A stretch of DNA of 64,000 nucleotides from Acidimicrobiales bacterium (GCA_047971245.1 JBKDZN010000057.1:4716-68715); one strand, 5' to 3'. Numbered from the stretch's first letter, positions 5,706 through 19,321 are shown. Numbers and translations are program-made. The notes: generated by a model not told the origin, from the sequence alone.

Positions 5706-5781
5706 TGGTGGTCGGGACCGGCGTCGATCCGGTGACCTACCGCTTTTCAGGCGGTCGCTCTGCCAACTGAGCTACCCGACC
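5706..5781 (-). tRNA. tRNA-Phe (anticodon GAA)
   Basis: Minus strand GGTCGGGTAGCTCAGTTGGCAGAGCGACCGCCTGAAAAGCGGTAGGTCACCGGATCGACGCCGGTCCCGACCACCA. Cloverleaf with anticodon loop CTGAAAA and an encoded CCA. Confidence 0.9.
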
Positions 5782-5848
5782 CTGCCCGATTCGCCCGGGC
5801 CGGGCCCGGACGAACTCGCACCCGACGGCGGAACCGACGGGTGGTGCG

Positions 5849-5923
5849 CGGTCCTGACGAGATTTGAACTCGCGACCTCCGCCTTGACAGGGCGGCGTGC
5901 ACTCCAGACTGCACTACAGGACC
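5849..5923 (-). tRNA. tRNA-Asp (anticodon GTC)
   Basis: Minus strand GGTCCTGTAGTGCAGTCTGGAGTGCACGCCGCCCTGTCAAGGCGGAGGTCGCGAGTTCAAATCTCGTCAGGACCG. Anticodon loop CTGTCAA. Confidence 0.95.
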
Positions 5924-5970
5924 AGATTGATGATGTGACCACCAACGCCCACTCGCGTGTGGACGTTGGC

Positions 5971-6046
5971 TGGCACCCCCAACGGGATTCGAACCCGTGT
6001 TGCCTGCGTGAAAGGCAGGTGTCCTAGGCCACTGAACGATGGGGGC
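5971..6046 (-). tRNA. tRNA-Glu (anticodon TTC)
   Basis: Minus strand GCCCCCATCGTTCAGTGGCCTAGGACACCTGCCTTTCACGCAGGCAACACGGGTTCGAATCCCGTTGGGGGTGCCA. Anticodon loop CTTTCAC and an encoded CCA. Confidence 0.95.
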
Positions 6047-6190: not shown

Positions 6191-6712
6191 TCAGGTGAGG
6201 TCGGTGGGGGGTTCGGGGGCGTCGGGACGGCCCTCGGGGGGGAGCACCCCGGCCAGGGTGTCGACGATCTCGCCGACCAGCGCGCCGAGCTGGTGGTACA
6301 CCATGAACGCGGCCCGCTCGTCGTCGTCGGTCGGGGCCTCGTCGTCGTCCTCGCTCACGTCGAGCCGGGTGCCGAGCACCAGGCGGAGGTCGTTGATGAT
6401 GGTCAGCCACGACACCAGCTCCCCCTCGGTCAGGGAGGGGGACGTCACGGTCTCCCGCATGGTGTCGATGGCGGCCCGCCGTTCGTCGATCAGCTCGGAG
6501 CGTCCCAGGATCTGGTAGGCGGCGTCGAGTTCCGGATCGTCCGGGTACGCGGTGGGGAACAGGCGGCGGGTGTCGTCCAGTTCCAGGTCGAGGAGTTCGT
6601 CGAGCTGGTCGGCCAGTTCGACCACCCAGGCCCGGGACTCCGGGGCGAGCCGCACCGTGAACCGCCCGTCCGTGGTGGCCTCGAACAAGCGGCGATCGCG
6701 AAAGAGTCCCAT
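6191..6712 (-). CDS. DUF2017-like protein (conserved ClpS neighbour in actinobacteria)
   Basis: Start chosen at MGLFRDRR (ATG 6712) behind GGAGGG. Acidic protein with RRLFPTAYPDDPELDAAYQ and WLTIINDLRLVLGTRL motifs that I recall from DUF2017. Lies directly downstream of clpS. Confidence 0.7.
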   Translation of the reverse strand: MGLFRDRRLFEATTDGRFTVRLAPESRAWVVELADQLDELLDLELDDTRRLFPTAYPDDPELDAAYQILGRSELIDERRAAIDTMRETVTSPSLTEGELVSWLTIINDLRLVLGTRLDVSEDDDEAPTDDDERAAFMVYHQLGALVGEIVDTLAGVLPPEGRPDAPEPPTDLT

Positions 6713-6726
6713 TCCCGCCCTCCGGA

Positions 6727-7014
6727 CTACTCGTCGTGTTCCATCGTCGCCCACAGACCATGGTGGTGGAGCCGCTGCACATCCCGCTCCGCCTCGGTTC
6801 GGGTGCCACTCGACACCACGGCCCGCCCCTTGTGGTGGACGTCGAGCATGAGCTGGTTGGCCTTCTCCTCGCTGTACCCGAACAGCTTGCGGAACACATA
6901 GGCCACATAGGTCATCAGGTTGATGGGATCGTTCCAGACGATCACCCGCCAGGGCCGGTCCTCCTCCACCAGTTCATCGCCCGCGGTCTGGTGGACCTCG
7001 AGCGGGGCGGTCAC
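6727..7014 (-). CDS. clpS: ATP-dependent Clp protease adaptor ClpS
   Basis: C-terminal 95 codons of track ORF 6727-7800: [45 protein letters not shown]. The GTG start at 7014 overlaps the ctaA stop (GTGA). Confidence 0.9.
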
Positions 7015-7958
7015 GAGGCCACCACCGACGGTTCGTTCGGGGCGGTGCCGGTGCTGAGCGGATCCGGCTCCGGGCCCGGCTCGGGTTCCATCGGCGGTCG
7101 GTGCCAGAGGCGGAGGTGGAGGACCAGGAGCAGGTCCCAGACCACCATCGAGCCGATGAGGTGGAGCATGACCAGGGCGGGCGGGACGCTGAGCGCGAAC
7201 TGGAGGTAGCCGATGCCACCCTGGACCACGACCGCGGCCACGAGCAGCCGGGCGGCCGCGGCCGCCGACTCCGGACCGTGGCGCTGGAGCTGCACGGCCA
7301 GGGCCACCACCGCGGCGAGCAGGCACCACACCGCGATGCTGTGGATGCGGGTCACGTCGGTCAGCTCGAACGGCAGGCGATCGGCCCGGGCGTCGCCACT
7401 GTTGGGCCCCGTGCCGGTGACCGCGGTGCCGAGCACCATGACCAGTACGGCCAGGGCGACGGCGACCCGGCTGGTGGTGATCACCCGGGGGGGCACGGCC
7501 GGTCCGGTTGGCGGCCCACCGGACCCGGCCCGGACCCAGGCCACGGCTCCGGCCCACAGCAGGGCCATCGAGACGAGGAAGTGCAACCCGACCGTGGCCG
7601 GATGGAGGTGGGCGATCACGACCACGGCGCCGATCGCGATCTGGGCCACCACGCCGGCCACCATGGCCCACGCCGGGGCCAGGAGATCCCGCCGGAACGG
7701 GCGCCGCCGGTAGGCCATGAGGACGGCCAGGGCGACCGACACCGCCACCGCGCCGGTGAACAGGCGGTTGCCGAACTCGATCCAGGCGTGCAGCTGCCAC
7801 GCCGGCACCGGGTGTTCCTCGGAACAGATGGGCCAGTTGTCACAGCCCAACCCGGCGTCGGTCAGGCGAACCAGGGCGCCGGTGACCACGATCGTGGCCA
7901 GTAACGCCCACGCCACAGCAACGATGGAGCGGTATCGGGAAGGCCCCACGGTTCGCAC
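7011..7958 (-). CDS. ctaA: Heme A synthase (COX15/CtaA family)
   Basis: Multi-TM protein with [19 protein letters not shown] and paired His-containing helices ([18 protein letters not shown]). Divergent from ctaB. Confidence 0.85.
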
Positions 7959-8006: not shown

Positions 8007-8972
8007 ATGGTTGCAGTTTCGGTCATCTCCTGGCCCCGGGCGGCGCGCGGTCGGTACGCTGCGGGTGTGGTAGCCACTGCGGCCCCCAGTCGGCATCGGG
8101 CACTTGCGTTCATCGCGCTCACCAAGCCCCGGATCATCGAGCTGTTGCTCGTGACGACGGTGCCGACCATGATTCTGGCCCAGCAGGGACTGCCCTCGGT
8201 CTGGTTGATGGTCAACACCGTCATCGGCGGAACCCTGGCCGCCGGCGGAGCCAACGCCTTCAACATGTACATCGACCGCGACATCGACGCGGTGATGAAC
8301 CGGACCAAGGGCCGCCCGCTCGTCACCGGGGAGGTCGCGCCCACCGAGGCCCTGGTGTTCGCCTTCGCGGTGGAGGCCGCCGCCTTCGTGTGGTTGTGGA
8401 CGCTGGTCAACCTGCTGTCGGCCGTGCTCGCGTTGGCCGCGTGTGCCTTCTATGTCGGCGTCTACACCCTGTGGCTGAAGCGCTCCTCCACCCAGAACAT
8501 CGTGATCGGCGGGGCGGCCGGGGCCGCCCCGGTCCTGATCGGCTGGTCGGCGGTGACCGACTCGTTGAGCTGGGCGGCGGTGATCCTGTTCGCCGTCATC
8601 TTCTTCTGGACCCCGCCCCACTTCTGGGCCCTGGCCATCAAGTACACCGACGACTACTCGGCGGCCGAGGTGCCGATGATGCCGGTGGTCGAGGGGTTCC
8701 GGTCCACGGCCCGCCAGATGGCGGTGTACGCCGCCATCGTCTGGGTCCTCAGCCTGGCCCTCTGGTTCGTGGCGCCGGTCGGCTGGTTCTACATGGGCAC
8801 GGCGTTCGTGTTCGGCGCCTGGTTCACCTTCGGCGCCGTCCGGCTCATGACCGAGACCGACCCCGAGACCCGCTCCCAGCAGGCCATCCGGTACTTCACG
8901 TTCTCCATCACCTATCTCACGGTGCTGTTCACCGCCCTGGCCGTCGACCAGTTCGTCGGCTGGGGTATGTGA
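8007..8972 (+). CDS. ctaB: Protoheme IX farnesyltransferase (heme O synthase)
   Basis: ALTKPRIIELLLVTT, NMYIDRDIDAVMNRTKGRPL and FFWTPPHFWALA motifs. The start may instead be the in-frame GTG at 8067. Confidence 0.9.
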   Translation: MVAVSVISWPRAARGRYAAGVVATAAPSRHRALAFIALTKPRIIELLLVTTVPTMILAQQGLPSVWLMVNTVIGGTLAAGGANAFNMYIDRDIDAVMNRTKGRPLVTGEVAPTEALVFAFAVEAAAFVWLWTLVNLLSAVLALAACAFYVGVYTLWLKRSSTQNIVIGGAAGAAPVLIGWSAVTDSLSWAAVILFAVIFFWTPPHFWALAIKYTDDYSAAEVPMMPVVEGFRSTARQMAVYAAIVWVLSLALWFVAPVGWFYMGTAFVFGAWFTFGAVRLMTETDPETRSQQAIRYFTFSITYLTVLFTALAVDQFVGWGM

Positions 8973-9157
8973 CAGTTTAGAAAACCAGGACCAGAGGCGG
9001 TTACAGTACGTGGCCGCACGCCCGGCGGGTGCCCTTTGGTGCGCTCACCAGGCGGAGGGACTGACTTGGTTCGACGGCCTCCACCGCTTCGCCGAACCCG
9101 GTTCGTCCACGGCAAGTCAGTACCATCCGCGCAACGCTCGTCGAGGGCAATCGAACC

Positions 9158-10870
9158 ATGGCATCTCCATCCTCCCGTCCCGCCGCTCCGGCCGAGCCGC
9201 CGAACGTCGGCACCATCGACGGTCTGCTCGGTTCGGCCGATCACAAGACGATCGGGCGGTTCTGGATCGCCGCCGGCCTGATCGGCCTGATCGGTGGCCT
9301 GGCCGTGTCGTCGCTCGTCGGGTTCGAATCGATCGACCTGGCCGGGTTCACGGTGGTCGACGACGCCGGCCAGTTCACCCAGCTGTTCTCCCTCGGTGAA
9401 GAGCTCGTGTTGTTCGGTGGGCTGGTGCCCCTGCTCATCGGCATCGGGACCTTCCTGGTGCCCCTGCAGGTCGGTGCCCCGGCCATCGCCTTCGCCCGCG
9501 GTGCCGCCGGGGCCTTCTGGACCTGGCTGGCCGGTACGGCGCTGATGGTGGTGGCCCTGGCGGTCAACGGTGGCCCCGGCGGCGGCCGCCGCGACTTCGT
9601 CATCCTCTGGGCCCTGGCCCTGGTGATCAGCCTCGGTGCCCAGGTGTGGGCCCTGGCCGTCCTGGCCACCACGATCCTCGGGGCCCGGACGAGCGGGATG
9701 ACCCTCGATCGGGTCCCGTTCACCACCTGGTCGTACCTGGTTTTCTCCCTCCTCGGCCTGGTCACCCTGCCGGTGATCATCGCCGACCTGGTCTACGCCT
9801 ACATCCGGGTCCGCTACGGCCTGCTCCCCAACGACGCCAACACCTCGCTGGTCGGCGTGGTCGCCCCGGTGGCCCTGGCCCCCGGGGTGTACTGGTTCGG
9901 GGTCCCCTTGCTGGGTATGGCCGCCGACATCATCGGGGTCCACACCGGCCGGGCGGTCCGGGCCCAGCGGGCCCTGCTCGGCGCTCTCGGCGCCCTCGGC
10001 TTCGTCTCCTTCGCCGCCGATTACTTCGCCTTCGGCACGGTGCGGCCCCCCCAGTTCGACCAGGCGCTCGGCGTGATCGCCATCGTCCTCGCCGTGCTCG
10101 TCATCCTGGCCAACCTCGGTCTGGCCGGCGACAGCATCCGCACCGGGGAACCCCGGTTCCGGGCCCCCCTGCTCGCCGCCCTGGTGTCCGGTCTGGTGCT
10201 GTTGCTCGCCGCGGCCACCGCCGTCCTCGGGGTCTTCGAGCCGGTGGCCCTCTGGCTCCACCGGAACACCTCGATCGGTATCAACCTCGACAAGCTGTTG
10301 ATCGTCAACGGCACCCGGTTCAACGACGGCATCCGGGCCGTCGTGATCGGCGCCACCGTCACCGCCGTCGTGGCCGGGCTGGCCAACTGGGCCCCGAAGC
10401 TCTGGGGTCGCACCCTCAGTGCCGCCGTGGTGGTCGGTGCCGCCCTGCTGGCCGCCGGAGGCGCCGTCGTGTGGGGCGCCGGGGCGGTCCTGGCCGGGAT
10501 CGACGATCAGCCCGCCCTCCCCTACGCCACCCTGGCCGGTGGGGACTCGGTCGAGTTCGGCAACCTGCTCGCCTTCCTGGGCACCCTGGCCGTCCTGGCC
10601 GCCGCCGTGGTCATCGGCCTCGAGGCGGCCCGGGTCGCCTCCGGATCCACCCGCCCGGCCGGCGGCGATCCCTGGACCGGTCTCACCCTCGAGTGGGCCA
10701 CTGACTCGCCTCCGTCGTTCGGCAACTTCGCCTCGGCCCCGGTCGTCCGTTCGGCCACCCCACTGGCCGAGGACGGCATGGTGATGGCCCCCGAGGAGGA
10801 GGTCCCCGATGAGGAGGCCGGAGAACTGGCCGGTGTGAGCAGCGGCGGGTCGGAGGAGAGCAATGACTGA
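9158..10870 (+). CDS. Heme-copper oxidase subunit I-like membrane protein lacking all metal-ligand histidines
   Basis: Aligns by eye along its length with CtaD at 13679-15673 (DHKTIG, PLQVGAPAIAFARGAAGAFW, NWAPKLWGRTL, DPWTGLTLEW..SPP..NF). The heme a, heme a3 and CuB His positions are substituted. See the findings. Confidence 0.8.
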   Translation: MASPSSRPAAPAEPPNVGTIDGLLGSADHKTIGRFWIAAGLIGLIGGLAVSSLVGFESIDLAGFTVVDDAGQFTQLFSLGEELVLFGGLVPLLIGIGTFLVPLQVGAPAIAFARGAAGAFWTWLAGTALMVVALAVNGGPGGGRRDFVILWALALVISLGAQVWALAVLATTILGARTSGMTLDRVPFTTWSYLVFSLLGLVTLPVIIADLVYAYIRVRYGLLPNDANTSLVGVVAPVALAPGVYWFGVPLLGMAADIIGVHTGRAVRAQRALLGALGALGFVSFAADYFAFGTVRPPQFDQALGVIAIVLAVLVILANLGLAGDSIRTGEPRFRAPLLAALVSGLVLLLAAATAVLGVFEPVALWLHRNTSIGINLDKLLIVNGTRFNDGIRAVVIGATVTAVVAGLANWAPKLWGRTLSAAVVVGAALLAAGGAVVWGAGAVLAGIDDQPALPYATLAGGDSVEFGNLLAFLGTLAVLAAAVVIGLEAARVASGSTRPAGGDPWTGLTLEWATDSPPSFGNFASAPVVRSATPLAEDGMVMAPEEEVPDEEAGELAGVSSGGSEESND

Positions 10871-11492
10871 CATCTCGGCGTACTACGACGCTCGCGAGAA
10901 TCCGCACGACATCATCCCGGAGTACGTCGACGCGCCGGAACCGGCCCGGCCCCGGCTCCTGCTGCTGGCCACCGCCCTGATCTCCGCCGCCGTGCTCGTC
11001 GGGTACGGGGCCATGGTCGGCTACTACCTGTCGGTCCGGGCCCCCATCCGGGCCTCGGGCGAATCATGGCTGCCGGCCGACATTCCCCTGACCCAGCCCA
11101 ACTTCATGCTGATCACGGTGGCGATGTCGGTGATCACCGCCGGGTGGGCGCTCCAGGCGGTACGCAACGACGACAAGGCGAACAGTTACATCGCCATCTG
11201 CCTGACCCTGTTGTTCGGGTTCGCCCAGATCGCCCAGACGGCCTATCTCCTGACCCTGCTCGAGACGCCCGCCGGCGACGGCGAAGCGGCGTCGCTCATG
11301 TACCTGTTGATCGGTACCCAGATCGCCGTGATGCTGGTGGCGATGGCCTTCATGGCCCTGACCCTGTTGCGCACCCTCGGTGGGGGCTACTCGGCCCGCG
11401 ATTCGGAGGGTGTGCTGAGCGCGGCGATCTTCTGGTTCGTGTCGGCCGGGGTGTACACCCTGCTGTGGTACGTCGTTTACATCAGTAAGTAG
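10863..11492 (+). CDS. Oxidase subunit III-like membrane protein (divergent paralog of CtaE)
   Basis: IPLTQPNFMLITVAMSVITAGWALQ and AAIFWFVSAGVYTLLWYVVYI parallel IPFTSVSSFILLMSSLTMVLAHS and VGLYWHFVDIVWVLIFTIVYL in CtaE at 15673-16362. Overlaps the upstream gene by 8 nt. Confidence 0.7.
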   Translation: MTDISAYYDARENPHDIIPEYVDAPEPARPRLLLLATALISAAVLVGYGAMVGYYLSVRAPIRASGESWLPADIPLTQPNFMLITVAMSVITAGWALQAVRNDDKANSYIAICLTLLFGFAQIAQTAYLLTLLETPAGDGEAASLMYLLIGTQIAVMLVAMAFMALTLLRTLGGGYSARDSEGVLSAAIFWFVSAGVYTLLWYVVYISK

Positions 11493-11515
11493 GTCGAGGA
11501 GTAGGTCGAGAAACG

Positions 11516-12310
11516 ATGTTCACCTGGGGTTCCAAATTCCTCTTCGGCCTGTCGGCCGGGTCGCTGGTCGGCGCCTGGCTCTACGGCCTGTTCAGCGGCG
11601 GTTCGCTGGTCGGTGTGATCAGCATCGGCTACAAGGGCGGTGTCGGTGATCTCACCGGGTACGCCATCCTGCTCACCATCGCCGCCGTCATGTTCCTGCT
11701 CGGTCTGCTCAACCTGATGATCCGGGACGGGTCGGCCGAGGTGGCCGCCGAGTCGGTCGGGGCCGACCACGCCCTCACCGTCAGCACCCCCCGGGCATCG
11801 TCCTACTGGGGCCCGTTGGCCGCCTTCGGTCTCGCCGCGGTGGTGCTGGGGATCGCGGTGTCCACCGCCTTCCTGATCCTCGGCGCGGTGGTCCTGTTCG
11901 CGGTGGCCATCGAGTGGCTCATCCTCGACTGGTCGGATCGGGCCACCGGCGATCCCGACGTCAATGCCGCCATCCGCAGCCGTCTAGCCGGGCCCTTCGA
12001 GGTGCCGGTGCTGGCGCTGCTGGGGGCCGCCTTCCTGGTCCTGGCCCTGTCACGAGTGCTGCTGGCGCTGAGCAGCCCCACGGCCTCCACCATCTTTGCC
12101 GGGGTGGCGGCGGCCATCGTGTTCGCCTTGGCGATCGCCATCGCCAAGTCGAATGCCCCCCGTTCGATCATCAGCGGCGTCGTGGCCCTCGGGGCCATCG
12201 CCGTCCTGGCCGGTGGAGTCGTCGGCGCCGTCGTCGGCGAACGCCCCATCGGACATCACGAGACCGACTCGGCCGATCACGCCGACGTCGAAGGAGGCGA
12301 AGGCGAGTGA
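11516..12310 (+). CDS. Polytopic membrane protein with a CtaF-like (actinobacterial subunit IV-like) segment
   Basis: About 8 hydrophobic helices. SYWGPLAAFGLAAVVLGIAV resembles SYWPIVLAGGLPIVGYGL at the C-terminus of CtaD. The stop overlaps a candidate ctaC start (GTGA at 12307-12310). Confidence 0.6.
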   Translation: MFTWGSKFLFGLSAGSLVGAWLYGLFSGGSLVGVISIGYKGGVGDLTGYAILLTIAAVMFLLGLLNLMIRDGSAEVAAESVGADHALTVSTPRASSYWGPLAAFGLAAVVLGIAVSTAFLILGAVVLFAVAIEWLILDWSDRATGDPDVNAAIRSRLAGPFEVPVLALLGAAFLVLALSRVLLALSSPTASTIFAGVAAAIVFALAIAIAKSNAPRSIISGVVALGAIAVLAGGVVGAVVGERPIGHHETDSADHADVEGGEGE

Positions 12311-13665
12311 CCGTCGACCGTGACGCTGCTGACCCCGGCGTGCAGGCCGGAGAGAGCCCCGACACGCCGGGACGTCGTGGCCGGGTAGGTGATGGTCTTG
12401 GCCGGGGACGACGCCGATCCCGCGGGATCGGCCTGGCCCTGCTGGCTTCGCTGACCGCCCTGGTGGTGGCCGGCTGTGCCGAGGACAAGCCGCTCAACAC
12501 CTTCGAGCCCCGCGGCCCCAAGGCCGAACAGATCGACTCACTGATGATGCCCATCTGGGGCATCATGGGTGTCGTCTTCGTGCTCGTCATCGGCGGCACG
12601 ATCTGGCTGGCCCTGCGCAACCGGGTCAACCCGGACACCTACGACCCCGATGATCTCCCGGCCCAGACGCACGGCAACTTCCGGTTGGAGATCGCCTGGA
12701 CGATCGCCCCGGCCCTGGTACTGGCCCTCATCTCCATCCCCGTGGTGGCCAACATCTGGTCCTTGGAGAAGAAGGGCGACGGCGTCGAGGTGATGGTCAT
12801 CGGCCAGCAGTGGTGGTGGGAATACCGCTACGACGTGGACGGTGACGGCTTCTTCGTCGACGCCAACGGCGACGGTGTGGTCGACGAGGCCGACCAGGAG
12901 CTGCCGCTGAACATCGCCCTCGACCGTGACGATGTCGTCACCGCCAACGAGCTGGTCATCCCGGCCGGCGAACAGGTCGATCTGGTCCTCACCTCCCGGG
13001 ACGTCATCCACTCCTTCTGGATCCCCCGGCTGAACGGCAAGCGCGACACCGTTCCCGGTCGTTGGCACACCTGGGCGCTCCAGGCCGACGAGCCCGGCAA
13101 GTTCACCGGCTGGTGCACCGAGTTCTGCGGGATGTCCCACGCCCGGATGCGGATGTCGACCATCGCCCTGCCCCGGGCCGACTTCGACCAGTGGCTGGCC
13201 AATCAGGCCACCCCGGCCGAGGTTCCCACCGAGACCGAAGCTGCAGCCGGCTACGAACTGTTCCAGAATCAGTGCATGAGCTGCCACGTGATCAACGACG
13301 GCAACCTCGACTACGGCGAGAACTTCGAGGCCGCCCTCACGGCCGGCGGGGCTCCCAACCTGACCCACTTCGCCACCCGCACGGTGTTTGCGGGCGCGAC
13401 GCTGCCGGTGTACCTCGGCCCGGGCACCGACCCCAACGACGATGCGTTCAACGTCGAGAACTATCTCGATCTGTCCGCCCTCGCCGCTGACGCCGACAGC
13501 CCCGACGACTACCGGCTGAACCGGCCCCTGCTCAAGCAGTGGGTCAGTGACGCCTCCCAGCTGAAGGACATGTCGCCCGACGACGGGCGGGGCATGCTGC
13601 CGTTCCCTCAGCTGACCGACGAGCAACTCAACCAGATCGTCGCCTATCTGGCGACGCTCGATTAG
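12307..13665 (+). CDS. ctaC: Cytochrome c oxidase subunit II with fused cytochrome c domain (caa3 type)
   Basis: Lipoprotein-like signal LALLASLTALVVAGC, CuA site HSFWIP...CTEFCGMSHARM, and a C-terminal heme c motif CMSCH. The start is uncertain (GTG 12307 or GTG 12340). The track ORF 11914-13665 is over-extended. Confidence 0.85.
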   Translation: MTVDRDAADPGVQAGESPDTPGRRGRVGDGLGRGRRRSRGIGLALLASLTALVVAGCAEDKPLNTFEPRGPKAEQIDSLMMPIWGIMGVVFVLVIGGTIWLALRNRVNPDTYDPDDLPAQTHGNFRLEIAWTIAPALVLALISIPVVANIWSLEKKGDGVEVMVIGQQWWWEYRYDVDGDGFFVDANGDGVVDEADQELPLNIALDRDDVVTANELVIPAGEQVDLVLTSRDVIHSFWIPRLNGKRDTVPGRWHTWALQADEPGKFTGWCTEFCGMSHARMRMSTIALPRADFDQWLANQATPAEVPTETEAAAGYELFQNQCMSCHVINDGNLDYGENFEAALTAGGAPNLTHFATRTVFAGATLPVYLGPGTDPNDDAFNVENYLDLSALAADADSPDDYRLNRPLLKQWVSDASQLKDMSPDDGRGMLPFPQLTDEQLNQIVAYLATLD

Positions 13666-13678
13666 GAGCCGGATTCCC

Positions 13679-15673
13679 ATGGCGATCACAGAAAAACCTC
13701 TGGCGCTACCGACCGGCGCTCCCCGCAAGGAGCTCGACGAGAAACCTCTGGGCAGCCTCACCAGGCCCCGGCACGCCAAGGGTCTGGTTGATTGGCTGAC
13801 CACGGTCGATCACAAGAAGATCGGGATCATGTACGGCGCGGCCGCCATGTTCTTCCTGGTCATCGGCGGTGTCGCCGCCCTGCTGATCCGGATCCAGCTG
13901 GCGGTGCCCAACAACACCTTCCTGTCGGGTGAGGCCTACAACCGGGTCTACACCATGCACGGCACGATCATGATCTTCCTGGTCGTGATGCCCATCGGGT
14001 CCGCGTTCGCCAACTATCTGTTGCCGATCCATGTGGGAGCCAGAGACGTGGCCTTCCCCCGGATCAACGCCTTCAGTTTCTGGGTGTACTTCTTCGGGGG
14101 GCTGATGCTGAACACCAGCTGGTTCCTCGGGGGCGGCCCCGACGGTGGCTGGTTCAACTATGCCCCCAACAACGGGGTCGCCTTCTCGCCAAGCCACGGC
14201 ATCGACTTCTGGAACATCGGCCTGCTGATCGTCGGTTTCGGCTCCCTCACCGGGGCCATCAACCTGATCACCACGGTGCTCAACATGCGAGCGCCCGGTA
14301 TGAGCCTGATGAAGATGCCGGTGTACGTGTGGATGACCCTCGTCACCCAGTTCCTGCTGCTGTTCGCCATCCCGGTGCTCACCGTCGCCCAGCTGCTGCT
14401 GATGTTCGACCGTCTCTTCGGCGGCAACTTCTTCAATGTCGCTCAGGGGGCAGATCCGCTGCTCTGGCAGCACCTGTTCTGGATCTTCGGTCACCCCGAG
14501 GTGTACCTGATGATCCTGCCGGCGTTCGGCATCGTCTCGGAGGTCATCCCCACCTTCGCCCGCAAGCCGATCTTCGGCTACCCGTTCATGGTCTTCTCCG
14601 GTGTGGCGATCGGCTTCATGGGCTTCGGTGTGTGGGCGCACCACATGTTCGTGTCGGGGATGGGTCCGGCGTCGGTGACCGCGTTCAGCCTTGCCACCAT
14701 GTTCATCGCCGAGCCCACCGGTGTGAAGATCCTCAACTGGATGGCCACCCTGTGGGGCGGCACGCTGATTCTCAACACGGCCATGGTGTTCGCCATCGGT
14801 CTGGTCACCCAGTTCACCGTCGGCGGGTTGTCGGGCGTGTCGCACGCCGTGGCCCCGTCCGACACCCAGCAGACCGACACCTACTACATCGTGGCCCACT
14901 TCCACTATGTGCTGTTCGGCGGCGCCCTGTTCGGCTTCATGGCCGGCTTCTACTACTGGTGGCCGAAGGTCTTCGGCTACAAGCTCAACGAGCGGATGGG
15001 TAAGTGGAACTTCTGGCTGATGGTCATCGGCTTCAACCTGACCTTCGGCCCGATGCACATCCTCGGCCTCCAGGGCATGCCCCGACGGATGCAGACCTAC
15101 GACGCCTCGATGGGCTTCAACCTGTGGAACATGGTGGCCACCATCGGGTCGTTCATCCTCGGTGTCGGCACCCTGCTGCTGCTGGTCAACGCCTTCTTCT
15201 CCTTCCGCCGCTGGTCGGCGGCCGGTCGGCCCAATGTCGGCCCGGATCCGTGGGACGGGCGGACCCTGGAGTGGTCGATCCAGTCGCCGACCCCGGAGCA
15301 CAACTTCGACTACGACCCCCAGGTCGAACACGTCGACGACTTCTGGCACCGCAAGTACATCGAGGACGACGACCACACGATCCGTCGGGTGGCCACCGGC
15401 GAGGAACTCGCCCAGCCGGGCAACGGCGAAGGTGTGCACCTGCCGGCGCCGTCCTACTGGCCGATCGTGCTGGCCGGCGGCCTGCCCATCGTGGGCTACG
15501 GGTTGATCTTCAACCTGTGGCTCACCGTTCCCGGCGGGCTCATCGTCCTGCTGGCCCTGTTCGGCTGGGCGCTGGAACCGGCCGACGACCTCGACCATCC
15601 CGGTCACGACGATCACCACGACGGCGACCCGTCGCCGGGTGATGACCACGATCCCGAATTGGAGACTGTCTGA
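13679..15673 (+). CDS. ctaD: Cytochrome c oxidase subunit I with a C-terminal two-helix extension
   Basis: All canonical motifs are present: DHKKIG, YTMHGTIMIF, FGHPEVY, WAHHMF, VAHFHYV. The extra C-terminal segment APSYWPIVLAGGLPIVGYGLIFNLWLTVPGGLIVLLALFGWALEP resembles actinobacterial CtaF. Confidence 0.95.
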   Translation: MAITEKPLALPTGAPRKELDEKPLGSLTRPRHAKGLVDWLTTVDHKKIGIMYGAAAMFFLVIGGVAALLIRIQLAVPNNTFLSGEAYNRVYTMHGTIMIFLVVMPIGSAFANYLLPIHVGARDVAFPRINAFSFWVYFFGGLMLNTSWFLGGGPDGGWFNYAPNNGVAFSPSHGIDFWNIGLLIVGFGSLTGAINLITTVLNMRAPGMSLMKMPVYVWMTLVTQFLLLFAIPVLTVAQLLLMFDRLFGGNFFNVAQGADPLLWQHLFWIFGHPEVYLMILPAFGIVSEVIPTFARKPIFGYPFMVFSGVAIGFMGFGVWAHHMFVSGMGPASVTAFSLATMFIAEPTGVKILNWMATLWGGTLILNTAMVFAIGLVTQFTVGGLSGVSHAVAPSDTQQTDTYYIVAHFHYVLFGGALFGFMAGFYYWWPKVFGYKLNERMGKWNFWLMVIGFNLTFGPMHILGLQGMPRRMQTYDASMGFNLWNMVATIGSFILGVGTLLLLVNAFFSFRRWSAAGRPNVGPDPWDGRTLEWSIQSPTPEHNFDYDPQVEHVDDFWHRKYIEDDDHTIRRVATGEELAQPGNGEGVHLPAPSYWPIVLAGGLPIVGYGLIFNLWLTVPGGLIVLLALFGWALEPADDLDHPGHDDHHDGDPSPGDDHDPELETV

Positions 15674-16362
15674 TGACCGTCGCCGCTGATCCCGTCGCCG
15701 AACACGCCGGCGCCGAGGAACACGAGGCCCACCGCACCAGTCTCGGCCTGTCCAACATGAAGTTGGCGATGTGGCTGTTCCTGGGCTCGGAGTGCCTCCT
15801 GTTCGGGGCGCTCATCTCCACCTACCTGCTGTCCCGGGCCAATTTCGTGACCGAGCTGTTGGCGGGCAACCCGACGGTCATCGCCACCCTGCCCGAGGCA
15901 CTGGTCCAGGAGTTCGTGGCCGAAGGGTCGGTCCAACCGATCTTCGACATCCCGTTCACCTCGGTCAGCTCGTTCATCCTGCTGATGAGTTCACTGACCA
16001 TGGTGCTGGCCCACAGCGCCACCGTGGACGGCAACACCCGGAACGCAAAGGTGTGGTTGGCTGCCACCGCCCTGCTCGGCTCGACGTTCATCGCCGGGCA
16101 GGTCTACGAGTTCACGGTGTTCTACCGGGAAGGCCTGACCTACACCGGCAACCTGTTCGGTACCGCGTTCTTCACCCTCACCGGATTCCACGGTGTGCAC
16201 GTCACCGGCGGCATCCTGATGCTGTTGTCGCTGCTCGTCATGGCCATCCGAGGCCGCCTCGGTCCCGACCGGGCCGAGACGGTCGAGATCGTCGGGCTGT
16301 ACTGGCACTTCGTCGATATCGTCTGGGTGCTCATCTTCACCATCGTCTACCTGATCCCGTGA
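15673..16362 (+). CDS. ctaE: Cytochrome c oxidase subunit III
   Basis: NMKLAMWLFLGSECLLFGALI, FTLTGFHGVHVTGG and YWHFVDIVWVLIF. The start overlaps the ctaD stop. Confidence 0.9.
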   Translation: MTVAADPVAEHAGAEEHEAHRTSLGLSNMKLAMWLFLGSECLLFGALISTYLLSRANFVTELLAGNPTVIATLPEALVQEFVAEGSVQPIFDIPFTSVSSFILLMSSLTMVLAHSATVDGNTRNAKVWLAATALLGSTFIAGQVYEFTVFYREGLTYTGNLFGTAFFTLTGFHGVHVTGGILMLLSLLVMAIRGRLGPDRAETVEIVGLYWHFVDIVWVLIFTIVYLIP

Positions 16363-16372
16363 GGTCCCTGTC

Positions 16373-16717
16373 ATGACCGACGCCAGCACCGAGGTCCTCC
16401 ACGACGCCGACGCTCACGGCGAGGATCACAGCCACCCCACCGAGATCCAGTACTGGATGGTGTTCGTCTCCCTGGTCATCCTCACCGCCGTCGAGGTGGC
16501 GTGGTCCTACCTGGGGCTTGAAGGACCGGCCCTGGTGATCCCGCTGGTGATCATGATGGTGGTCAAGTTCATCCTCGTGGCCGGGGCGTTCATGCACCTC
16601 TACTTCGACATGAAGATCATCAACGGTCGCTTTTTCACCTGGGCGTTCCTCGGGGCATTGGTTCTGGCCCTCGCGGTCTACATCGGTGTGGCGGCCACGT
16701 TCGAGTTCCAGGTGTAA
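16373..16717 (+). CDS. Prokaryotic cytochrome c oxidase subunit IV family protein (COX4_pro type)
   Basis: 114 aa with three TM helices. YWMVFVSLVILTAVEV and MMVVKFILVAGAFMHL are typical of the small subunit IV of caa3/aa3 oxidases. Confidence 0.75.
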   Translation: MTDASTEVLHDADAHGEDHSHPTEIQYWMVFVSLVILTAVEVAWSYLGLEGPALVIPLVIMMVVKFILVAGAFMHLYFDMKIINGRFFTWAFLGALVLALAVYIGVAATFEFQV

Positions 16718-16722
16718 CGATC

Positions 16723-17691
16723 ATGCTCATCGCCCTCGCCACCGCAGAGTCGACCGCCGATTCGGTGAGCCTGGGCGACATCGGGTGGAACGCCCACCCC
16801 GAGGTGTGGACCCTGATCATCGGGATCATCGCCCTGGGCTGGTGGGTATTCCGGGTGCTCCAACCCAAGGCGGTGGCCGCCGGATACCCACCGATCAGCC
16901 GGCGCCAGGTCGCCTGGTTCGTGGCGGCCACAGTCAGCATGTGGGTGGCCTCCGACTGGCCGGTCCACGACGTGGCCGAGCAGTACCTGTACTTCGTCCA
17001 CATGTTCCAGCACATGTTCATCTCGATGCTGGTACCGGCCATGTTCCTGCTGTCGATGCCGATGTGGCTGTTCGACCTCGTCATCCCCGAGGGAACCACG
17101 GCCCGGCGGGTGTTGCGCTACGCCTCCCGCCCGCTGGTGGCCGGGATCGTGTTCAACGTGTTGACCATGGTCCTGCACTGGAGCCTGCTGGTCACCCTGT
17201 CAGCCGAGAACGGCGCCCTGCACTACGGCCTGCATCTGATGATCTTCATCTCCGGCCTGCTGATGTGGATGCCGGTGGTCGGCCCGGTGCGGGAATGGCG
17301 GCTCCAGCCCCTGGCCCAGTGCTTCTACCTGTTCGGGATGTCCATCGTGCCCACGGTGCCCGGTGGCTGGCTCGTGTTCGCCGAAGACGTGGTGTACCGC
17401 TCCTACGACGTACCCCAACGGCTGTGGGGGGTCGACGTGCTCGCCGACCAGCAGATGGCCGGCGTGGTCATGAAGATCGTGGGTGGCTTCGTCCTGTGGG
17501 CCATCATCGTGATTATCTTCGGCCGATGGGCGTCGACCGAGGTGGGCAAGGACCTCGACGCGGTGCGATCCCGGGATCGGGCCCGGACCGATCGGGAGCT
17601 CACCGCCCTGGCCGAGGACGAGCCGTTGACGGTGAACGACATCTCGGCCCGGTTCGCCGAATCGGATGCACCCGAGGAGCGGGTGCCCTGA
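16723..17691 (+). CDS. ctaG: Cytochrome c oxidase assembly factor CtaG (Caa3_CtaG family)
   Basis: Polytopic membrane protein with HMFQHMFISMLVPAMFLLSMP and MAGVVMKIVGG. Last gene of the cta operon. Confidence 0.8.
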   Translation: MLIALATAESTADSVSLGDIGWNAHPEVWTLIIGIIALGWWVFRVLQPKAVAAGYPPISRRQVAWFVAATVSMWVASDWPVHDVAEQYLYFVHMFQHMFISMLVPAMFLLSMPMWLFDLVIPEGTTARRVLRYASRPLVAGIVFNVLTMVLHWSLLVTLSAENGALHYGLHLMIFISGLLMWMPVVGPVREWRLQPLAQCFYLFGMSIVPTVPGGWLVFAEDVVYRSYDVPQRLWGVDVLADQQMAGVVMKIVGGFVLWAIIVIIFGRWASTEVGKDLDAVRSRDRARTDRELTALAEDEPLTVNDISARFAESDAPEERVP

Positions 17692-17745: not shown

Positions 17746-18372
17746 ATGACCGATCTGGCCGCGATGCGCCAGGAATACGAGACGGCGGGCCTCGACCAGG
17801 TCGACGACGACCCGGTGACCCAGTTCGAACACTGGTTGGACGACGCCGTCCGAGCCGAACTGCCCGAGCCCAACGCCATGGTGCTGTCCACCGTGGATGA
17901 GGCCGGCCAGCCGTGGAGCCGGTACGTCCTCCTCAAGGGCGTCGGGCCGGATGGGTTCGACTTCTACAGCAACGAGCGGAGCAACAAGGGCCGGCACCTG
18001 GCCGGCAATCCCCACGCCGCCGCCACGGTGGGCTGGCTCGGGCTGCACCGCCAGGTCAACCTGGCCGGTCCCGTGGTCCGGGTGCCCGCCGACGCCGCCG
18101 ACGCCTACTGGGCGTCACGACCCCGGGGGGCGCGGGTGGCCGCCACCGCCTCGAACCAGAGCCACCCGCTGACCGATCGGGCCGAACTGATGGCCATCGT
18201 GACCGAGATCGACGCGGCCGGTGACGACCTGCCCCGCCCCGGCCACTGGGGCGGCTGGCGGATCGTTCCCCACACCATCGAGTTCTGGCAGGGCCGCCCC
18301 AACCGGCTGCACGACCGGCTGCGGTACACCCGGACCGACGACCGGTGGGTGATCCGCCGCCTCGCCCCCTGA
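17746..18372 (+). CDS. pdxH: Pyridoxamine 5-prime-phosphate oxidase
   Basis: SRYVLLKGVGPDGFDFYSNERSNKG, ASRPRGARVAATASNQS and EFWQGRPNRLHDRLRY...LAP, a classic PdxH C-terminus. Confidence 0.9.
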   Translation: MTDLAAMRQEYETAGLDQVDDDPVTQFEHWLDDAVRAELPEPNAMVLSTVDEAGQPWSRYVLLKGVGPDGFDFYSNERSNKGRHLAGNPHAAATVGWLGLHRQVNLAGPVVRVPADAADAYWASRPRGARVAATASNQSHPLTDRAELMAIVTEIDAAGDDLPRPGHWGGWRIVPHTIEFWQGRPNRLHDRLRYTRTDDRWVIRRLAP

Positions 18373-18379
18373 GCGGGTA

Positions 18380-19321
18380 TCAGTTGAGTGCGGCCGCGGC
18401 CGGGATCAGCGCCGCGCCCGCCTCCAGGACCTGATCCAGATCGGTCAGGTCGAGCACCTGGAGGTAGGCCCGGGTGCAGCCCAGTTCGGCGTAGGCGGCC
18501 AGTTTCGCCACCACCTCGTCCACCGTGCCCGCCGCCCCGTTGGCGCGCAGCTCGGCCGGCTCCCGCCCGATGGCGGCCGCCCGCCGGTTCATCGTCGCCT
18601 CGTCGGCCCCCAGGCAGAGCACCAGGGCCACGGAGTAGACCAGGTCGTCCGGGGCCCGGCCCGCGTCGGTGCAGGCCTGTCGGATCCGGGCCATGGCGGC
18701 CGCGGTGTCGTCCACATCGGCGAACGGCAGGTTGTACTCCGCGGCGAAGCGGGCGACGAGGGCGGGTGTCCGGTTCGGCCCGCGGCCCCCGATGATGATC
18801 GGCGGACCCGGCCGCTGGGTCGGCTTGGGCAGGGCGGGCGACTGGTGGAACCGGTGGAAGCGGCCCTCATGGGTGAAGGTCTCGCCGTCCGGGGTGGCCC
18901 ACAGGCCAGTCATCTGCTCCAGGTACTCCTCCATCAGATCGAAGCGGGTACCGAGCGGCGGGAACTCGAGGCCGTACCGATCGTGCTCCTCGCCGTACCA
19001 GCCGGTCCCGAAACCGAAGTCGACCCGCCCCCCGCTCATGGCGTCGACCTGGGCCACCATGATGGCCAGCGGGCCCGGACGGTCGAAGGTGGCCGGACTG
19101 ACCAGGGTGCCCAACCGGATGGTCGAGGTGTCACGGGCCAGACCGGCCAGGGTCACCCAGGCGTGCGTCGGTCCGGGCAGGCCGCTCACCTCGCCCATCT
19201 TGAGGTAGTGGTCCGACCGGAAGAAGCCGTCGAATCCGGCGGTCTCGGCCGTGGACGCCACCGCCAGGAGCTGTTCGTAGGAGGCGCCCTGCTGGGGTTC
19301 GGTGAAGATACGGAGCTGCAT
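18380..19321 (-). CDS. LLM-class (luciferase-like) F420-dependent oxidoreductase
   Basis: MQLRIFTEPQQGASYEQLL...GFDGFFRSDHYL, the N-terminus typical of the F420-dependent LLM subfamily. About 313 aa, TIM-barrel size. Confidence 0.85.
   Translation of the reverse strand: MQLRIFTEPQQGASYEQLLAVASTAETAGFDGFFRSDHYLKMGEVSGLPGPTHAWVTLAGLARDTSTIRLGTLVSPATFDRPGPLAIMVAQVDAMSGGRVDFGFGTGWYGEEHDRYGLEFPPLGTRFDLMEEYLEQMTGLWATPDGETFTHEGRFHRFHQSPALPKPTQRPGPPIIIGGRGPNRTPALVARFAAEYNLPFADVDDTAAAMARIRQACTDAGRAPDDLVYSVALVLCLGADEATMNRRAAAIGREPAELRANGAAGTVDEVVAKLAAYAELGCTRAYLQVLDLTDLDQVLEAGAALIPAAAALN

Follow-up and report, generated by a model that had tools for sequence, protein, structure and literature searches.

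A predicted cofactor-less homologue of the haem-copper oxidase core, conserved inside the caa3 oxidase operon of Acidimicrobiia

The 64,000-nucleotide (nt) stretch of Acidimicrobiales bacterium DNA analysed here (GCA_047971245.1, JBKDZN010000057.1:4716-68715; hereafter the window) contains a Bacillus-like cytochrome caa3 oxidase locus with three extra genes between ctaB and ctaC, which we call psI, psIII and psX. All three lie on the + strand. The open reading frame (ORF) of psI (9158..10870) encodes a 570-residue, 12-helix homologue of oxidase subunit I, identified through COX1, TIGR02891, BLASTP and its fold; psIII (10863..11492) encodes a 209-residue, 5-helix homologue of subunit III, identified through Pfam COX3 and hhalign; and psX (11516..12310) encodes a 264-residue, 7-helix protein with an acidic, His-rich C-terminal tail and no family assignment. 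psI and psIII overlap by 8 nt (ATGACTGA), psIII and psX are separated by 23 nt, and the stop codon of psX overlaps a GTG at 12307 (GTGA) that is a possible start codon of ctaC. Shine-Dalgarno-like GGAGG motifs are present upstream of psIII and ctaC. At third codon positions, the three genes have a G+C content (GC3) of 0.86-0.91, as is typical of coding sequence in this genome of 70% G+C. No COX2-like gene was found within the psI-psIII-psX module.

The rest of the locus encodes the active oxidase and its cofactor and assembly functions. The first gene upstream of psI is ctaB, for haem O synthase (8007..8972, +; Pfam UbiA, E 1.8e-65), and ctaA, for haem A synthase, is divergent from the operon (7011..7958, −; Pfam COX15-CtaA, E 3.5e-26). 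Downstream of psX, all on the + strand, are ctaC (12307..13665, putative start), encoding a caa3-type subunit II with a CuA cupredoxin domain and a fused cytochrome c domain (Pfam COX2_TM, COX2 and Cytochrom_C; a CMSCH haem c motif is present in the translation); ctaD (13679..15673), encoding subunit I with all ligands (COX1 516.8 bits; TIGR02891 695 bits, above the cutoff); ctaE (15673..16362), for subunit III (Pfam COX3, E 1.3e-21); ctaF (16373..16717), for a Bacillus-type subunit IV (Pfam COX4_pro, E 4.3e-9); and ctaG (16723..17691), for a caa3-type assembly factor (Pfam Caa3_CtaG, E 3e-41). CtaD has a C-terminal extension with a two-helix Cyt_c_ox_IV-like tail (residues 581-633; Pfam Cyt_c_ox_IV, 30.5 bits). 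No terminator-like site lies between ctaB and ctaG in the window, and the junctions are conserved, so that the module and ctaCDEFG form one apparent transcription unit. A preliminary description of this DNA had given the same coordinates and gene packing and had proposed co-expression with the functional oxidase, with which this layout agrees.

Sequence comparisons place psI in the haem-copper oxidase superfamily over its whole length. It matches Pfam COX1 with E 1.9e-30 (106.6 bits) and TIGR02891 end to end (residues 25-530 on model positions 3-504 of 504), scoring 118.8 bits against a cutoff of 670.75, and BLASTP aligns it with CtaD of the window over 559 columns at 23% identity (E 5e-24). 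An AlphaFold2 model built with 20 homologues is a 12-helix bundle (predicted local distance difference test, pLDDT, 80.7; predicted TM-score, pTM, 0.84), and the 50 best Foldseek matches of this model in the PDB are all COX1 chains, with leading TM-scores of 0.72-0.83. Among solved structures, the best matches to the psI family profile (E about 1e-41) are CtaD of actinobacteria and subunit I of Bacillus aa3-600. CtaD proteins of Acidimicrobiales score about equally against it (120-162 bits; six rows that were cross-hits to psI are left out), which indicates that psI derives from a Gram-positive-type A-family subunit I. In common with A-family subunit I (CtaD/CoxA; PF00115, TIGR02891), psI has the 12-helix fold, the motifs DHK, PLQxGA..AFxR, RxxGM..P..W and WxPKxxG, the helix-kink Pro/Gly residues and the C-terminal W.G.TLEW..SPP..NF motif. 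It differs from CtaD in having no two-helix tail at the C-terminus, no propionate Arg pair, none of the six ligand His and no residue of the D- or K-channel.

The extent of this loss was tabulated for 76 psI and 63 co-resident CtaD from related genome loci (designated L###). In all 63 CtaD, the haem-propionate Arg pair, the cross-link Tyr and the six His ligands are present, together with residues equivalent to D132, N139, E286 and K362. psI of the window has neither this Arg pair, nor any of the six His, nor the residues of the two proton channels; the low-spin haem positions in transmembrane helices (TM) 2 and 10 are occupied by Gly and a non-His residue, and the whole protein contains three His. 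The CtaD motifs YTMHG, GHPEVY, WAHHMF and VAHFHYV are replaced by FSLGE, LAPGVY, SFAADYF and VNGTRFN, respectively. The CuB His and haem a3 His residues are found in 0/76 psI, and the same is true of the channel residues, D132 being replaced by Ala, Ser, Gly or Thr, N139 by Ala, E286 by Ala, Ser or Gln, and K362 by Val, Leu or Phe (76/76). The TM10 haem a His is present in 0/76 and the TM2 His in 5/76 psI in the alignment used for this table; a separate alignment places a TM10 His in L061 and L064, which means that the low-spin His pair is complete in at least two of the 76. Tyr or Phe is retained at the cross-link position in 73/76 psI, but its His partner is gone. The whole-length alignment with CtaD, the substitution of every named ligand position and the count of three His, all of which the preliminary description had read by eye, are borne out by these results.

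A set of His ligands conserved at shifted positions had been named beforehand as the observation that would speak against ligand loss. Among the 76 psI, only the His of the DHK motif, common to CtaD, is conserved; other His columns reach 26-66% and do not lie near the ligand sites, and shifted ligands are therefore excluded. No column of Met, Cys, Tyr or Lys consistently replaces a ligand in these proteins, the substitutes being Gly, Ser, Ala, Val, Leu, Gln and Pro. Mapped on the model helices, psI positions with at least 90% conservation number 41/227 on the cytoplasmic side (N-side) vs. 12/191 on the outer side (P-side; Fisher p 3e-4), and 33 of the 41 N-side positions carry the CtaD residue. 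In mid-membrane, 8/117 positions are conserved, 7 of them with the same residue as CtaD. Features conserved in psI alone are R34, an NGT insert preceding TM10 and, in most members, an Arg adjacent to the lost TM2 His. Judged by these features, psI is homologous to the haem-copper oxidase superfamily without being an oxidase, and lacks every functional hallmark of an oxidase or nitric oxide reductase subunit.

The parallel between psIII and CtaE noted in the preliminary description is also supported. psIII scores 28.5 bits against Pfam COX3 (gathering score 23.8), and hhalign profile-profile comparison with co-resident CtaE gives a probability of 97.2% (E 3.6e-11) over 163 columns. For both psI and psIII, then, the similarity to oxidase profiles (COX1, COX3) is significant and goes beyond generic transmembrane helices. 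The canonical subunit III motifs are substituted in the window, GFHGxHV by IGTQIAV and YWHFVD by IFWFVS. Early-branching psIII proteins partly keep these motifs (THLVAVIAAHV and FWHF in L081; GLHLLHL in L087).

psX of the window gave no match in Pfam, NCBIfam or PDB sequences, and a Pfam search with 29 close psX homologues returned nothing significant, one of the 29 matching Cyt_c_ox_IV at E 1.6. Kinship with ribosomal P1, suggested by profile matches to PDB sequences, was rejected because these matches are spurious and due to the acidic tail. The AlphaFold2 model of psX has a pLDDT of 74 and a pTM of 0.51; Foldseek with this model found nothing at E below 1, and its second-ranked match, to a 139-residue chain from the bcc:aa3 complex of M. 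tuberculosis, lacks significance (E 2.5). Pairwise, psX SYWGPLAAFGL aligns with the CtaD tail at a likewise non-significant E of 0.94. At the level of hhalign profiles, psX residues 70-139 (11723..11932, +), a loop and helix hairpin (SSYWGPLAAFGL...), match CtaD residues 570-635 with 94.8% probability (E 5.3e-8) and are homologous to the two-helix CtaD tail, the control profiles of CtaE, CtaF (COX4_pro) and psIII giving 0.4% each against the psX profile. The profile of psX relatives fused to a cupredoxin domain, described below, matches the same tail with 95.6%. Among psX family representatives (designated P####), the distant relative P0414 reaches 31.1 bits against PF12270 Cyt_c_ox_IV (gathering score 26.9) and P0365 and P0398 reach 18 bits, and in several relatives with a cupredoxin domain the first about 125 residues match PF12270 positions 5-124 of 132.

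So psX would comprise a CtaF-like four-helix unit followed by three helices, with or without a cupredoxin domain. In its helices 3-4 it resembles actinobacterial subunit IV CtaF (PF12270), through the match to the CtaD tail, which is itself PF12270-positive; unlike CtaF, it has three further helices and, in relatives, the cupredoxin domain, and psX of the window stays below every threshold. The earlier assignment of this ORF as CtaF-like holds at profile level for the CtaD-tail segment and falls short for the protein as a whole, which has seven helices and cupredoxin-bearing relatives. In psX of the window, helix 7 is followed by an acidic tail of 24 residues (HHETDSADHADVEGGEGE), and there is no cupredoxin domain; in the family, the composition of this tail is conserved and its sequence and length are variable. 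Cupredoxins are extracytoplasmic, and the C-terminus of psX should therefore face outside, the orientation to which the CtaD-tail homology and the loop charges of psX also point. CtaD residues 570-664 (15386..15673) similarly close with a His/Asp-rich tail (DHPGHDDHHDGDPSPGDDHD), acidic and His-rich like that of psX.

As far as sequence can tell, psI, psIII and psX of the window thus hold no ligand for haem a, haem a3 or CuB. The module also has neither the D- and K-channels nor a Mg/propionate site, and neither a subunit II nor a copper domain of its own. Lacking ligands, channels and a copper domain, it should be incapable of oxidase-like electron transfer, O2 reduction or proton pumping.

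A scan of one genome per species gave 385 matching stretches, of which the best 80 were examined. These 80 are from metagenome-assembled genomes that bear the names Acidimicrobiales, Acidimicrobiia or Microthrix or are given as unresolved Actinomycetota/Actinomycetes; the nearest is 90% identical. The order ctaA(−) ctaB psI psIII psX ctaC ctaD ctaE ctaF ctaG is found in 80/80 loci wherever the contig reaches, with the exceptions that ctaB is on the opposite strand in L051 and that tblastn did not detect ctaF in the loci that diverge most. psI, psIII and psX are as little as 32-36% identical to those of the window, compared with 62-83% for CtaD. The ORFs are intact wherever the contig allows, with median intergenic distances of −2.5, 10 and −1 nt. 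Median ratios of nonsynonymous to synonymous substitution rates (dN/dS; Nei-Gojobori, 12-13 close genome pairs) are 0.14 for psI, 0.08 for psIII and 0.10 for psX, compared with 0.08 for CtaD, from which the pair of the window and L001 is left out because L001 ends before ctaD and its apparent CtaD match was psI, and 0.12-0.14 for CtaC, CtaF and CtaG. All three extra genes are thus intact and under purifying selection. Two of them evolve faster than their counterparts in the oxidase, psI at about 3.4 times the rate of CtaD and psIII at about 2.4 times that of CtaE. Residual correlations in rate covariation were 0.48 for psI-CtaD, 0.46 for psX-CtaC and 0.50 for CtaC-CtaD; these are weak and have no valid null.

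The signs of decay that the preliminary description had listed as reasons to abandon its proposal are missing from these data, in which dN/dS is far below 1 and no frameshift affects a ps gene of the relatives. Its term "shadow copy" fits in that the module is a homologous, cofactor-less core; it is not, however, a simple copy of the genes of this operon but an old module, present in all 80 loci. In three loci, tblastn matches are split into two adjacent pieces (L023, ctaB; L045, ctaC; L072, ctaD), which suggests frameshifts or assembly errors in genuine oxidase genes and not in the ps genes.

In the wider family, ligand loss is graded. Searching with a profile made from the remotest sequences of the first round brought in over 1,000 additional psI clusters (90% identity). 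Of 232 psI clusters scored for the two low-spin haem His residues, 162 have neither, 30 have one and 40 have both. Clusters with both show F-T-L-H-S in TM2 and A-Q-x-H-Y in TM10; their haem a3 His is mostly Gln or Val, and their CuB His residues are replaced by Gln, Met, Pro or Leu. Replacement of His by Gln needs only one base change, as would fit an origin from a genuine oxidase subunit. In the wider psI family, the full CuB His set is missing from all recurring ligand patterns, and a His lies within three columns of the CuB positions in 10, 1 and 1 of 137. The Arg next to the lost TM2 His is found in 117/167 His-less clusters vs. 1/65 His-keeping clusters (uncorrected for phylogeny) and on several branches of the tree, so that substitution by Arg beside the lost haem ligand is apparently recurrent; psI of the window has Glu at this site (residue 81).

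An exhaustive profile search yielded 934 psX representatives at 50% clustering. Of the top 150, 33 proteins of 330-410 residues have a C-terminal cupredoxin-like domain (Cupredoxin_1 with E down to 4.6e-15, plus Copper-bind). The type-1 copper ligand set H...C-D-V-H-P-x(1-2)-M is intact in 5 of the 33, the rest having lost the Cys or a His. Derivation of this domain from CtaC was considered and rejected, since hhalign gives only 7.5% (E 0.0047), in line with generic cupredoxin similarity. The L083 locus reads DUF2017-ClpS-ctaA(−), ctaB, psI, psIII, psX-cupredoxin, ctaC, ctaD, ctaE, ctaF, ctaG, and cupredoxin-bearing psX genes occupy a similar operon slot in L081, L082, L085, L086 and L087. The copper motif is intact in four loci (L082, L083, L085 and L087), and in each of them psI keeps both low-spin haem His residues (4/4). 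In L081, the copper-site Cys is replaced by Ser and the haem His pair is kept; in L086, the cupredoxin domain is degenerate and psI has no haem His. Other residues of the active oxidase persist here and there, namely the a3 His in L085, the Arg pair in L083 and the D-channel Asp in L081-L083.

Two further observations are in line with this gradation. Scores against Pfam COX1 decrease from CtaD (516.8 bits) to psI of L083 (204.7 bits) and psI of the window (106.6 bits), and a neighbour-joining tree rooted with CtaD places the cofactor-keeping psI at its base and the clade of the window at the tip. The module of the window would thus be the end point of a graded series, from type-1 copper plus haem through haem only to neither. 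The preliminary description had called the module a redox-dead duplicate; this wording suits the window, where the module looks cofactor-less, and needs amending for the family, in which the loss is graded and early-branching members keep the haem ligands and a type-1 copper site.

Some members of the family have additional features. In L087/L088, which hold the earliest-branching module found, a second Caa3_CtaG-family gene (9012-9917, −) is divergent from psI, and an extra gene for a 223-residue lipoprotein-like product (13511-14182, +) lies between psX-cupredoxin and ctaC; in CtaD of L087, the linker before the PSYWP hairpin has grown to about 100 acidic residues. P0414, from a 3.4-kb contig of JGI sample 3300041965, combines a CtaF-like part with a type-1 cupredoxin domain; no subunit I- or III-like genes precede it, and its two upstream genes are on the opposite strand. 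The CtaF-like/cupredoxin portion of psX may thus occur independently of the module as well. P0452 (410 residues) is a fusion of Peptidase_S58 to the psX core, followed by a low-complexity Ser/Pro tail, and looks like a gene-call or assembly artefact.

With moderate confidence, we propose that psI-psIII-psX is a permanent, non-catalytic partner of the caa3 oxidase, acting as a pseudo-protomer or a supercomplex element. Its ancestor would have been a redox-active accessory complex, passing electrons from blue copper to low-spin haem, that arose from duplicated oxidase subunits and was already without CuB. The redox centres would have been dispensable and lost repeatedly while the protein body was retained, and from this we infer that the retained function is structural. 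In present-day cells, a psI-psIII-psX subcomplex would be made stoichiometrically with CtaCDEF from one mRNA and would pack against the active oxidase, stabilising or organising the enzyme in the membrane; selection on psI would preserve mainly the cytoplasmic face that it has in common with CtaD. We favour a permanent partner because of the translational coupling to ctaC, the invariant position of the module, selection like that on accessory subunits, and the weak rate covariation.

Several points weigh against this proposal. The evidence for association with CtaCDEF is indirect, consisting of operon coupling and weak rate covariation. ctaA, ctaB and ctaG lie in or beside the same unit, so operon membership cannot separate subunits from biogenesis factors, and the rate-covariation correlations come without a valid significance test. 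The neighbour-joining tree is crude and open to long-branch artefacts, which can draw slow sequences rootward. The His/Arg and copper/haem co-occurrence counts are uncorrected for phylogeny, and the copper/haem pairing is drawn from six distinct loci (L081-L083 and L085-L087). Twenty-four helices are a heavy cost for a purely structural role. Finally, the conservation of the cytoplasmic face could point to a binding partner or insertion factor shared on the cytoplasmic side.

The first of the alternatives is a biogenesis scaffold, in which the module would be a transient surrogate core, absent from the mature enzyme; it might hold newly made CtaC, CtaE or CtaF, or engage haem A or copper delivery while CtaD is being loaded. 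The module separates the haem A pathway genes (ctaA and ctaB) from those for the oxidase subunits, and ctaG belongs to the same operon; the cytoplasmic-face motifs of psI are those of CtaD, so that the same factors could recognise it, and a second Caa3_CtaG gene adjoins psI in L087. We nevertheless consider a scaffold unlikely, since Pfam and NCBIfam searches showed no homology of psI, psIII or psX to Surf1, Sco, PCuAC, CtaG or CtaA/B, the module has no haem or copper ligands with which to hold a cofactor, and translational coupling to ctaC suggests equimolar synthesis of 24 helices, which is unusual for a chaperone.

An independent membrane function co-regulated with respiration, such as a channel, transporter or sensor of protons, ions, O2 or lipids, is more doubtful still. 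It would account for strong purifying selection on proteins devoid of redox residues and for the conserved residues specific to psI (R34, the TM2 Arg and the NGT insert). However, Ala, Ser, Gly, Leu or Val stand in place of the polar residues that line the two known proton paths, conservation in mid-membrane is confined to the 8/117 positions given above, 7 of them the same as in CtaD, psI of the window has Glu and not Arg at the TM2 site, and the invariant operon position in 80/80 loci argues for a function linked to the oxidase.

Continued redox activity of the window module, through haem or copper bound by non-His ligands (Met, Tyr, Lys or carboxylates) or by the His-rich tail of psX, seems very improbable. 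The early-branching relatives look redox-active, the psX tail would by its inferred topology be outside, where relatives have the cupredoxin domain, and Tyr or Phe is retained at the cross-link position; yet no Met, Cys, Tyr or Lys column consistently replaces a ligand, the propionate-binding Arg pair is lost, and the tail varies in sequence and length. That the genes are decaying duplicates without function deserves practically no credence despite their faster evolution, a pseudogene origin being ruled out by the intact ORFs, the dN/dS of 0.08-0.14 across 12-13 pairs and the conserved loci, with GC3 of coding type and the module retained at CtaD divergence down to 62% identity. The remaining probability falls to roles beyond those listed here.

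A permanent non-catalytic partner has its best precedent in cytochrome bd. CydA' is a duplication paralogue that co-associates with CydA in Archaea, and CydB is very divergent and faster evolving than CydA, which has almost all of the conserved catalytic residues (bioRxiv 10.1101/2021.01.16.426971). CydB and CydA' thus show an active subunit with a degenerate partner beside it in a terminal oxidase. They belong to a different superfamily, their partnership is established and they contribute channels, whereas association of the psI module is putative; and each is one subunit, whereas psI-psIII-psX copies the whole core with three proteins. A looser analogy is offered by the bc1 complex, whose peptidase-like core proteins are catalytically dead paralogues that keep an enzyme fold for a structural role. 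Unlike these, the dead proteins of the psI module would copy the catalytic core of the very complex that they are proposed to join.

Membrane-anchored blue-copper carriers include the sulfocyanin of the Sulfolobus SoxM complex, halocyanin and auracyanin, and early-branching psX resembles them. It likewise has a membrane-anchored domain of the Cupredoxin_1/plastocyanin-azurin type (H...C-x2-H-x(2-3)-M) encoded beside a terminal oxidase. Unlike in these carriers, the anchor is a seven-helix CtaF-like protein paired with subunit I- and III-like proteins, and most psX family members, that of the window included, have lost the cupredoxin domain or its ligands.

Searchable literature on haem-copper oxidase diversity, nitric oxide reductase families, cytochrome oxidase evolution, assembly factors and bd paralogues, of which our coverage is incomplete, yielded no account of a subunit I family without ligands or of such an insert in the operon, and the curated family libraries have no model for the psI module. 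Public annotation is generic ("cbb3-type cytochrome c oxidase subunit I" or "hypothetical protein"). Surveys of haem-copper oxidases recognise members by the six His ligands, and a family without them would be filtered out, even though psI and psX are abundant by the cluster counts given above. The psI module would constitute a pseudoenzyme family within the haem-copper oxidase superfamily, and the graded series a rare natural record of a membrane redox enzyme turning into a pseudoenzyme, lineage by lineage.

More tentatively, and with a smaller chance of holding in full than the permanent partnership, the two ends of the series can be joined in one proposal: the caa3 oxidase of these Actinomycetota would be an obligate assembly of one active core and one pseudo-core, and the early-branching members would form a new electron-transfer family derived from haem-copper oxidases. 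The pseudo-core, if real, would bring to the haem-copper superfamily an architecture of active and dead paralogues that resembles cytochrome bd and is not known to occur there. The early-branching family, if real, would combine psI with bis-His low-spin haem and psX with type-1 copper, would have no CuB, and would be neither an O2 nor an NO reductase. The module is found in Acidimicrobiia, which are common in oceans, lakes, soils and wastewater plants, the Microthrix-labelled genomes being among its carriers. If it belongs to the functioning oxidase, metabolic reconstructions err in counting it as a second one, and the known architecture of an important respiratory enzyme of bacteria lacks a part.

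Outside the operon, no cytochrome bc/qcr genes were found among the subset of window ORFs scanned. Downstream of ctaG (17746-19321) are genes for a pyridoxamine 5'-phosphate oxidase (+) and a luciferase-like monooxygenase (−), followed farther on by housekeeping genes for a redoxin, RNase T, a desaturase, a pyridoxal phosphate (PLP) enzyme, a Na/Pi transporter with PhoU and a peptide-binding protein. On the other side, three tRNA genes (Phe-GAA, Asp-GTC and Glu-TTC) occupy 5706-6046 (−), where the long ORFs called are spurious. A ClpS adaptor gene and a DUF2017 gene (6191-7050, −) directly adjoin ctaA. The same pair flanks the cta locus in the cupredoxin-bearing L083-L085 (309-1108 in L083; 5850-6669 in L085). 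It adjoins ctaA in L083 and L084 and, in L085, for which ctaA was not called, ctaB, so that conservation of the gene neighbourhood extends past the oxidase genes.

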